This document shows, one piece after another, positions 47,127 through 47,735 of a stretch of DNA of 64,000 bases. Position numbers and translations under genes: made by a program. Within the stretch, counting starts at the first letter, position 1, and each line of letters begins with the position of its first letter. Source of the DNA: Escherichia coli (GTDB taxonomy: Bacteria; Pseudomonadota; Gammaproteobacteria; Enterobacterales; Enterobacteriaceae); assembly GCF_045037415.1 (NCBI RefSeq), contig NZ_CP173438.1; one strand, 5' to 3'. The notes below the pieces were generated by a model, which was not told the DNA's origin, ran no database searches, and saw only the letters and a list, made by a program, of their open reading frames with translations.

Positions 47127-47190
47127 TAACCCTACTTTAATCAAGTAGGGTTATTGAGTGGTAAAGTTTGTGCTGAATGTAGGAGAGAAT

Positions 47191-47679
47191 ATGAAGAAAA
47201 TGTTTATATTGTTGTTGGCTGCAGGACTGCCATTAAACTCCTTTGCGAAGCCAGTAACGGAAAAGCAGCTTGCTACATACTTTATAGATAACGTTAAAAC
47301 TTCAGCAGATAAGAATATAGATCTAGATGTAGGTGGAATAAATAGACTGTCTGTAATATGCCCAGCAAAGTCGGCAAGTGGAACTCTTTTAATAAAAAAA
47401 GCATCCTACGAGTTTAATAAAGGTATTGGTGTTTTTGATTTTGAAAATAACTCACAATCTGCACCATTGGCTTTTATTGTACCAATTAGTGAGGATGAAA
47501 ATAACTTTGACTCGGAAATTATTGGTTTCTCTTTTGCATTTAAAATGCCAAGAGGGCAATTCTTTGTTGATGTTACGAAATCAGGGAAGGTAAAGGCTGG
47601 CGTAAATATTAGTGGTGAAAGCGGAATTACTTATTCATCATGTAGAATAGATACTCATAATGTTGATTATGATCTTTAA
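47191..47679 (+). CDS. Secreted hypothetical protein (signal peptide), low-GC moron inside tail operon
   Basis: ATG 47191 with AGGAGA RBS; MKKMFILLLAAGLPLNSFA signal peptide; AT-rich; own terminator. Confidence 0.5.
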   Translation: MKKMFILLLAAGLPLNSFAKPVTEKQLATYFIDNVKTSADKNIDLDVGGINRLSVICPAKSASGTLLIKKASYEFNKGIGVFDFENNSQSAPLAFIVPISEDENNFDSEIIGFSFAFKMPRGQFFVDVTKSGKVKAGVNISGESGITYSSCRIDTHNVDYDL

Positions 47680-47698
47680 TTTTATTACCTAATAAAAA

Positions 47699-47720
47699 AC
47701 CGCGTTTACACGCGGTTTTT
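47699..47720 (+). terminator. Rho-independent terminator after secreted moron
   Basis: ACCGCG-TTTACA-CGCGGT followed by TTTTTATTT, preceded by A-run. Confidence 0.55.
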
Positions 47721-47735
47721 ATTTGAGGTGACACC

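Follow-up and report, generated by a model that had tools for sequence, protein, structure and literature searches.

What is a small AT-rich gene doing in the middle of an otherwise tightly coupled phage tail operon, and does it belong to the tail at all? This question is raised by a 64,000-nucleotide (nt) stretch of Escherichia coli DNA (contig NZ_CP173438.1 of assembly GCF_045037415.1; hereafter, the window), which carries an SfIV/SfV-like prophage. Between the gene for the tail tape measure protein (TMP) and the Mu N-like baseplate gene (N) of this prophage lies an open reading frame (ORF) at 47191–47679 on the plus strand, which the original prediction, made from the letters alone, described as a secreted-protein moron with possible likeness to lom. 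Here we show that this cargo gene is missing from close relatives that retain TMP and N, and that the junction between the two is a site at which unrelated single-gene cassettes are exchanged. We conclude that the gene is probably an optional, moron-type cargo whose product acts in the periplasm, and we put forward, tentatively, the exclusion of incoming phages as its function.

The cargo ORF comprises 162 codons and is preceded by a Shine–Dalgarno (SD) sequence, AGGAG, read directly 5 nt upstream of the ATG (47181–47185, plus strand); on the opposite strand within the gene, the ORF list contains no frame of 50 or more amino acids (aa). The translation begins MKKMFILLLAAGLPLNSFA, followed by KPVTEK, and its first 19 residues, encoded at 47191–47247 (plus strand), read as a signal peptide composed of MKK, MFILLLAAGLPL and NSFA. 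From the sequence and the alignment of homologues we infer export by Sec, with cleavage after SFA19 and before K20. The gene has a GC content of 0.342, compared with 0.519 for TMP and 0.553 for N, and along its length the value stays at 0.34–0.35 as against 0.50–0.60 on both sides. An AT-rich gene for a 162-aa protein with a Sec-type export signal is therefore what the sequence holds, as originally predicted.

The same tail genes also occur without the cargo. In Shigella phage SfIV, TMP and N are 98% identical to those of the window and stand 24 nt apart with nothing between them, confirming that the gene interrupts a tight tail operon; in SfV, SfII and SfI, too, TMP is followed directly by N and the cargo gene is absent. 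The Escherichia phage vB_EcoM-720R4 (720R4) carries the gene, annotated there as hypothetical. Among 5426 complete E. coli genomes, a related N region was found in 1090 and the cargo cassette in about 100, with a 60–80% identical allele of the cargo in 11 further genomes. The exact protein is present on at least 1000 contigs, and its carriers include extraintestinal pathogenic E. coli (ExPEC) of sequence type 131 (ST131) and avian pathogenic E. coli (APEC) as well as isolates from water, livestock and commensal sources.

We then surveyed the content of the TMP–N slot in the 80 IMG/VR loci closest to the N protein of the window (at least 95% identity), of which 73 were evaluable and 7 had too little upstream sequence. 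The slot is empty in 33 of the 73, leaving a gap of 18 or 24 nt, and holds the gene of the window (cassette A) in 14. Four unrelated cassettes together fill the other 26. Cassette C (13 loci; L005:2879–3409) encodes a 176-aa protein with an N-terminal membrane anchor (phrog_5485), and cassette B (11 loci; L006:2892–3386) a 164-aa protein with a Sec signal peptide (phrog_8976). Cassettes D (L078:3473–3931; a bacterial PH domain, PF08000) and E (L076:3419–3901, on the minus strand and thus opposite to the operon; a membrane anchor and a tRNA_anti-like domain, PF12869) were each found once. Three of these four (B, C and E) are exported or membrane-anchored, so that envelope proteins account for four of the five cassette types; none of B–E matched a PADLOC model or has a known function. 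The slot genes of cassettes A, B and C have a GC content of 0.31–0.42, and their flanks 0.47–0.57. Two loci considered as extra slot types (L030 and L033) proved to be of the empty SfIV type, their TMP gene carrying a frameshift, and were counted as empty. The TMP–N junction is a recombination hot spot, or cargo swap site, in SfIV/SfV-like prophages of Enterobacteriaceae.

The limits of the exchanged segment can be drawn closely. Alignment of the window with SfIV and 720R4 delimits a variable segment at 47105–47783 (plus strand), in which about 680 nt replace about 85 nt and which extends from the last TMP codons through the cassette to codon 16 of N; homology with SfIV ends near TATTC(T/C)CC and restarts at GGCTGGCGTGA (47784). 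The 16 codons that open N (47736–47783) vary with the cassette, or the empty slot, upstream of them, and the swap boundary therefore lies inside the N coding sequence. N matches begin at residue 1, 4, 6, 17 or 18, depending on the cassette type. Because neither direct repeats nor terminal inverted repeats flank the cassette, we rejected a transposon origin. A 23-nt imperfect inverted repeat (74% complementary) pairs the ribosome-binding site (RBS) and start of the cargo gene (47179–47201) with the start of N (47740–47762), and is probably due to chance in AT-rich sequence.

Both a hairpin upstream and a rho-independent terminator downstream had been proposed as flanks of the gene, and only the terminator withstood comparison of 17 cassette A alleles. 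Folding places it at 47695–47726 (plus strand), with a stem of 47695–47705 paired to 47710–47720 around a GC core (CCGCGT/ACGCGG) and a T-rich tail: the hairpin AAAAACCGCGT-TTAC-ACGCGGTTTTT at 47695–47720 is followed by ATTT and folds at −14.5 kcal/mol (z = −3.5). Its stem is identical in all 17 alleles. Equivalent terminators lie 3′ of the slot genes in L003, L008, L095, L005 and L006, and likewise 3′ of distant homologues in L010 and L011; overall, a GC stem and T run stand directly 3′ of the gene in 8 of 9 contexts. We conclude that this element is the predicted terminator of the cassette itself. A simple consensus terminator scan did not call it, presumably because the A/U-extended stem uses up the T run, and an Rfam search returned only sub-threshold, terminator-like matches centred on the same hairpin, so a known RNA element was rejected.

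The upstream hairpin (47124–47156, plus strand), detected by folding and a repeat scan, has the TMP stop codon in its stem base and lacks a U-tract. In the window its arms (47125–47137 and 47143–47155) are complementary at 13 of 13 positions and fold at −18.5 kcal/mol (z = −5.1). The hairpin is this perfect in only 7 of the 17 alleles; nine carry three adjacent mismatches in the left arm, which weaken it to −8.7 kcal/mol (z = −2.1), and one (L023) has no left arm, owing to a deletion through which the cassette is fused to a truncated Rz gene. As it is not conserved and has no U-tract, we take it to be incidental, probably allele-specific and without function, and dropped it as a flank. Where the window reads ATAACCC, the commoner allele has ATATAAC (L001 and L013–L028 compared), a difference of three adjacent left-arm bases; such clustered changes that perfect a quasi-palindrome suggest a one-step template-switch mutation.

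A promoter belonging to cassette A is weakly indicated. A looser hexamer scan yielded a weak candidate extended −10 element, TGgTAAAGT, 23 nt upstream of the ATG (47159–47167, plus strand), which is unchanged in 17 of 17 alleles. The promoter-like sites of cassettes B and C are far better (TTTTCA-15-TATAAT and TTGTAA-16-TAGAAT).

The cargo protein belongs to a narrow, unannotated family of Enterobacterales. It matches PHROG 5586, of unknown function, over residues 1–161 of the 161-position profile (E = 2.1 × 10^−82), and searches of 5.8 and 1.8 billion proteins returned this homologue family alone; a second, profile-based homologue search added no further relatives. By their source names, the hosts are Escherichia, Shigella, Salmonella, Citrobacter, Enterobacter and Pantoea. 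No papers turned up in a literature search by accession and PHROG number, no defence-protein model in PADLOC-DB 2.0 matched the protein at E values up to 1, and an NCBIfam match to PdxA (E = 0.095) was dismissed as noise. In the family alignment of 12 sequences, all full-length members have a hydrophobic N terminus whose last residues fit small-x-A and are followed by K or G. G80 is the same throughout, and C57, F117 and C151 almost so. Homologues with as little as 24% identity retain the signal peptide, both cysteines and an FKMPxGQFF motif.

Structure prediction, as the original prediction had proposed, gave a confident fold. An AlphaFold2 model built from the alignment (mean predicted local distance difference test score (pLDDT) 86.4, predicted template modelling score 0.79) has a helix at residues 24–41 followed by eight strands; the model from the single sequence was poor (pLDDT 47.6). 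The model is a confidently predicted eight-stranded β-barrel, which may be of the up-and-down, calycin-like (lipocalin/avidin) or MliC/PliC-like kind; in it, C57 and C151 would form a disulfide that closes the barrel from first to last strand. The strands are only 5–10 residues long, and together with the N-terminal helix and the two conserved cysteines they lead us to read the model as a soluble periplasmic barrel. This reading departs from the lom-like protein suggested earlier, for which there is also no Pfam match. A search of the AlphaFold Database returned family members and then weak DUF4251 and lipocalin-like matches, BFVD gave no match at E ≤ 0.001, and a sequence-profile search of the PDB found nothing. 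A shared SASG motif and the first- and last-strand cysteines prompted a comparison with the lysozyme inhibitor MliC, but hhalign gave a probability of 0.9% (with the E. coli MliC sequence checked against PDB 2f09) and Pfam no match to the MliC/PliC family PF09864; homology to MliC was rejected.

How long has the gene occupied the slot? Homologues with 37–48% identity (P0007, P0011, P0013 and P0015) hold the same position in diverged Mu-type tail modules, whose TMP, N, P and tube proteins are 53–88% identical to those of the window, which argues against a recent one-off insertion. Divergence ranks these modules in the same order for the cargo and its neighbours, and the gene appears to have co-diverged with the tail. 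Among 17 close alleles, synonymous diversity (pS) is 0.027 in the cargo and 0.028–0.029 in the flanks, whereas the ratio of nonsynonymous to synonymous diversity (pN/pS) reaches 0.59 in the cargo against 0.07 in TMP and 0.16 in N; the reading frame is intact in all 17. Three distant homologues (P0019, P0020 and P0023; about 24–31% identity) lie outside tail modules on phage-plasmid-like contigs, where their neighbours are ParA-like and cI-like genes and, for two of them, toxin–antitoxin-type genes as well; terminators of their own accompany two of the three. Such ParA/cI-like regions are typically expressed in lysogeny. Sequence comparison thus indicates that the cargo gene is an old, fast-evolving resident of the slot that has been repeatedly lost or replaced.

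Some copies sit in damaged surroundings. An IMG/VR prophage (L023:3038–3944) has lost every head gene and the upstream tail genes in a deletion, so that cassette A directly adjoins a truncated Rz-like lysis gene at TAATCAAGTAGGG; its cargo protein is identical to that of the window. On a Shigella contig with a 48%-identical allele (L003:5308–5412), N ends after about 15 codons and continues as GGTAATGACTCCAACTTA..., which looks like the end of an IS1 element. Many Shigella copies of the protein are cut off at contig ends.

Taken together, these observations agree with much of the definition of a moron (Juhala et al. 2000, as restated in PMC3594210). The gene stands between two genes that are adjacent in related phages (24 nt apart in SfIV, with the slot empty in 33 of 73 loci), its base composition is unlike that of the surrounding genes, and it is followed by its own predicted terminator. 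The definition also asks for a promoter of the gene's own, for which TGgTAAAGT is a weak candidate, and for expression from the repressed prophage. The proposal of a secreted-protein moron is supported by the low GC content, the conserved terminator and the optional presence. Its absence from SfIV, SfV, SfII and SfI and from 33 of the 73 relatives, together with the export signal, leads us to regard the gene as optional cargo and not as a tail component. The comparison of tail operons might have revealed a conserved structural gene, and the moron proposal survived it.

On this basis we propose the following mechanism. The protein would be exported by Sec and have its site of action in the periplasm and not the virion. 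In the lytic cycle, the gene would be transcribed with the late tail operon, given that no terminator precedes it, and RNA polymerase modified by the Q-like antiterminator would read through the cassette terminator into N, which has its own RBS. In the lysogen, the terminator would end any transcript that starts at the weak extended −10 promoter; its presence is understandable if some transcription starts in the cassette, since this must not enter the baseplate genes. The most likely function, which we favour with some hesitation, would be envelope-level exclusion of incoming phages at the periplasmic step of tail penetration or DNA entry, as suggested by the analogy with gp15 of phage HK97, the location of the protein, its rapid evolution and the envelope proteins among four of the five cassette types. 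A broader and more doubtful possibility is that the TMP–N junction is a dedicated exchange site for envelope-acting anti-phage proteins, with cassette A a new family of soluble periplasmic exclusion proteins. On that view, the cargo protein might bind a periplasmic factor of the host that DNA entry requires, or else the tip of the incoming contractile tail (tape measure, N/P hub or spike); alternatively, it might inhibit a phage tail peptidoglycan hydrolase in the manner of PliC or PhiA.

Two alternatives that deny the gene a cargo role can be set aside. As a structural or assembly component of the Mu-type tail, such as a tape measure or baseplate accessory lost by some relatives, it would keep its position between TMP and the baseplate genes in several diverged modules and follow the same order of divergence as its neighbours, both of which are observed. 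Against this, SfIV, SfV, SfII and SfI are functional phages without it (PMC3851460), unrelated genes take its place in 26 of 73 loci where a further 33 have nothing, the export signal would carry the protein out of the cytoplasm, where tails are assembled, and the distant homologues lie outside tail modules. We regard this explanation as very improbable and effectively refuted. That the ORF is non-functional, arising in AT-rich junk DNA, could draw on its lack of annotation anywhere and its raised pN/pS, but is refuted by conservation: the frame is intact in every close allele with pN/pS below 1, the signal peptide, both cysteines and FKMPxGQFF persist down to 24% identity, the alignment yields a confident fold and the exact protein recurs on at least 1000 contigs. 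The chance that this is junk is negligible.

The other two concern what the cargo is for. A late lytic accessory without a role in the lysogen would be produced alongside the tail proteins and exported just ahead of lysis, perhaps to mask receptors on debris, to stop late superinfection or to tune envelope breakdown. Late transcription must occur, as the gene is inside the late operon with no upstream terminator; evidence for a promoter in the window is weak, and a homologue in L012 has neither room for a promoter nor a terminator. Yet a terminator follows immediately 3′ in 8 of 9 contexts, which is difficult to account for if transcription never begins at the cassette while the late operon is off. 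The distant homologues lie in maintenance and immunity regions instead of late operons, and an intact gene survives in prophages that are otherwise degraded (L023, the apparently IS1-disrupted Shigella copy and the window with its frameshifted sheath gene). We therefore hold a purely lytic role to be unlikely. A lysogenic-conversion factor directed at the animal host or the environment is also unlikely in our assessment: here a periplasmic lipocalin- or MliC-like barrel would raise the fitness of the lysogen by binding a small hydrophobic ligand or inhibiting an external enzyme such as lysozyme. With its cysteines placed in the first and last strands, the protein resembles MliC and its disulfide (PDB entries 2f09 and 3f6z), and the gene occurs in ExPEC ST131 and APEC genomes. 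The profile–profile comparison with MliC speaks against it, however, as do the absence of a Pfam MliC match even at E = 10, the phage or phage-plasmid setting of every family member examined, never a plain chromosomal one, and the water, livestock and commensal isolates among the carriers.

Several points weigh against the reading of the gene as a moron with an exclusion function. Apart from the dismissed PdxA hit, Pfam (even at E = 10), NCBIfam and PADLOC gave no family match for the cargo protein, and the fold searches produced no structural neighbour of known exclusion function; the proposed function is based on analogy and on the location of the protein. A consensus sigma-70 scan of the plus strand found no promoter site, and TGgTAAAGT, with its poor −35, is the one candidate in all. 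The syntenic homologue in L012 is packed between its neighbours with gaps of 16–17 nt and no terminator, and can only be a late-operon gene. Finally, the slot proportions are biased, because the 80 loci were chosen by similarity to the N protein of the window.

The closest parallel is the moron gp15 of HK97, an envelope-located exclusion protein encoded beside the tape measure gene (PMC3594210). Like the cargo gene, gp15 is a single small tail-operon insert next to the tape measure gene, of deviant composition, missing from close relatives and with a product destined for the cell envelope, where it blocks DNA entry of superinfecting phages in a tail-dependent manner (Juhala et al. 2000; Cumby et al. 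2012; reviewed in PMC3594210). A relative of YebO, gp15 is a small protein of the inner membrane, encoded upstream of the tape measure gene of a siphovirus, whereas the cargo protein is predicted to be a soluble exported β-barrel encoded downstream of TMP in a Mu-type myovirus tail. The two share neither sequence nor fold, and expression and exclusion have been demonstrated for gp15 but are predicted here. The Cor proteins of phi80, N15 and HK022 and Llp of T5 resemble the function that we favour in being phage-encoded, exported excluders at the envelope, and cor is situated where a cluster of tail genes ends; they differ in being outer-membrane lipoproteins that bind FhuA, whereas the window allele of the cargo protein lacks a lipobox and has no similarity to them. 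The MliC/PliC periplasmic lysozyme inhibitors, Brucella PhiA and, by function, T4 Sp also count among the closest known systems.

Lambda lom and bor (Ail/Lom, PF06316; Bor lipoprotein) are, like the cargo gene, prophage cargo in or beside the late tail region that encodes exported envelope proteins. The cargo protein has no PF06316 match (Pfam, E = 10), no lipobox and no C-terminal aromatic residue, and the modelled strands of 5–10 residues, N-terminal helix and likely disulfide point to a soluble rather than an outer-membrane barrel; it belongs to neither family. As a site, the slot resembles P2 Z/fun and other prophage hot spots (Rousset et al. 2022; iLund4u, 10.1101/2024.10.15.618418), where unrelated cassettes are likewise exchanged between conserved tail genes of a temperate myovirus. 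It differs in phage lineage and junction (TMP–N of SfV-like phages), in holding single small genes and in that four of its five cassette types are exported or membrane-anchored rather than cytoplasmic defence enzymes. The literature that we searched contained no description of the TMP–N slot.

The prophage around the slot combines lambdoid early genes, an HK97-type head and a Mu-type contractile tail. The cargo region is 98–100% identical to E. coli chromosomes and 720R4, the best chromosomal match by BLAST being E. coli DA33137 (99.8% over window positions 26599–57477). On the left, the slot is flanked by the TMP gene (45225–47126, plus strand; 633 aa), assigned from the ORF list, the TMP annotation in 720R4, SfIV and DA33137 and 98% identity to the SfIV TMP region; on the right is N (47736–49109, plus strand; 457 aa), a 'DNA circulation' or baseplate gene with its own SD, GAGGTG, assigned from the ORF list and the annotation of relatives. 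The Q-like late antiterminator (30789–31367, plus strand) lies upstream of the lysis and late genes of the same prophage and was recognized through its ORF and the match of the 99.8%-identical DA33137 copy to phrog_753, 'anti-termination protein Q-like' (6 × 10^−67). In the tail sheath gene (42967–44464), one extra A at 43843 (GAGAACCC, compared with GAGACCC in DA33137 and 720R4) splits the frame into ORFs of 323 and 223 aa. Unless this is a sequencing error, the prophage of the window would be unable to make a contractile tail, yet its cargo gene is intact.

Other parts of the window also hold accessory genes. A 463-aa protein encoded at 31507–32898, between the Q-like antiterminator and the holin, is annotated 'ATP-binding' in RefSeq, belongs to phrog_6841 (unknown function) and has only weak PADLOC matches (mad8, E = 2 × 10^−4); this interval is a classic lambdoid cargo site. 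Another cargo position may be 34380–34988, where a 202-aa DUF2441 protein (phrog_9842) without a PADLOC match is encoded between the Rz-like and HNH/terminase genes. The window runs from a yersiniabactin island (1–14066) through tRNA-Asn, mtfA and tRNA-Ser to the prophage, and ends with zinT and its neighbours. It begins inside this high-pathogenicity island (irp2, ybtA, ybtPQXS), and the prophage follows past tRNA-Asn, mtfA and tRNA-Ser (about 14400–19700); the annotation of DA33137 gives both adjacent integrase genes as frameshifted. Between zinT and msrQ, a 452-aa ORF (57520–58878) looks, by translation alone, like a fused IS3-family transposase and is not found at the corresponding place in DA33137.

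Morons in tail operons are well known, and the presence of one here is unsurprising in itself; the value of the finding is practical. It defines a sharply delimited exchange site in a group of prophages that is very common in E. coli, Shigella and Salmonella, with a related N gene in about one-fifth of complete E. coli genomes, and the slot holds at least five single-gene cassettes, four of them exported or membrane-anchored, of unknown function. To our knowledge, few exclusion proteins that act in the periplasm have been described and fewer are understood. The cassettes are short and easily cloned and would lend themselves well to a screen. If the junction does serve as an exchange site for anti-phage proteins, cassettes B, C and E would be further entry blockers; if the protein instead counters host lysozyme or other stresses, it would be relevant to ExPEC lineages such as the ST131 carriers.

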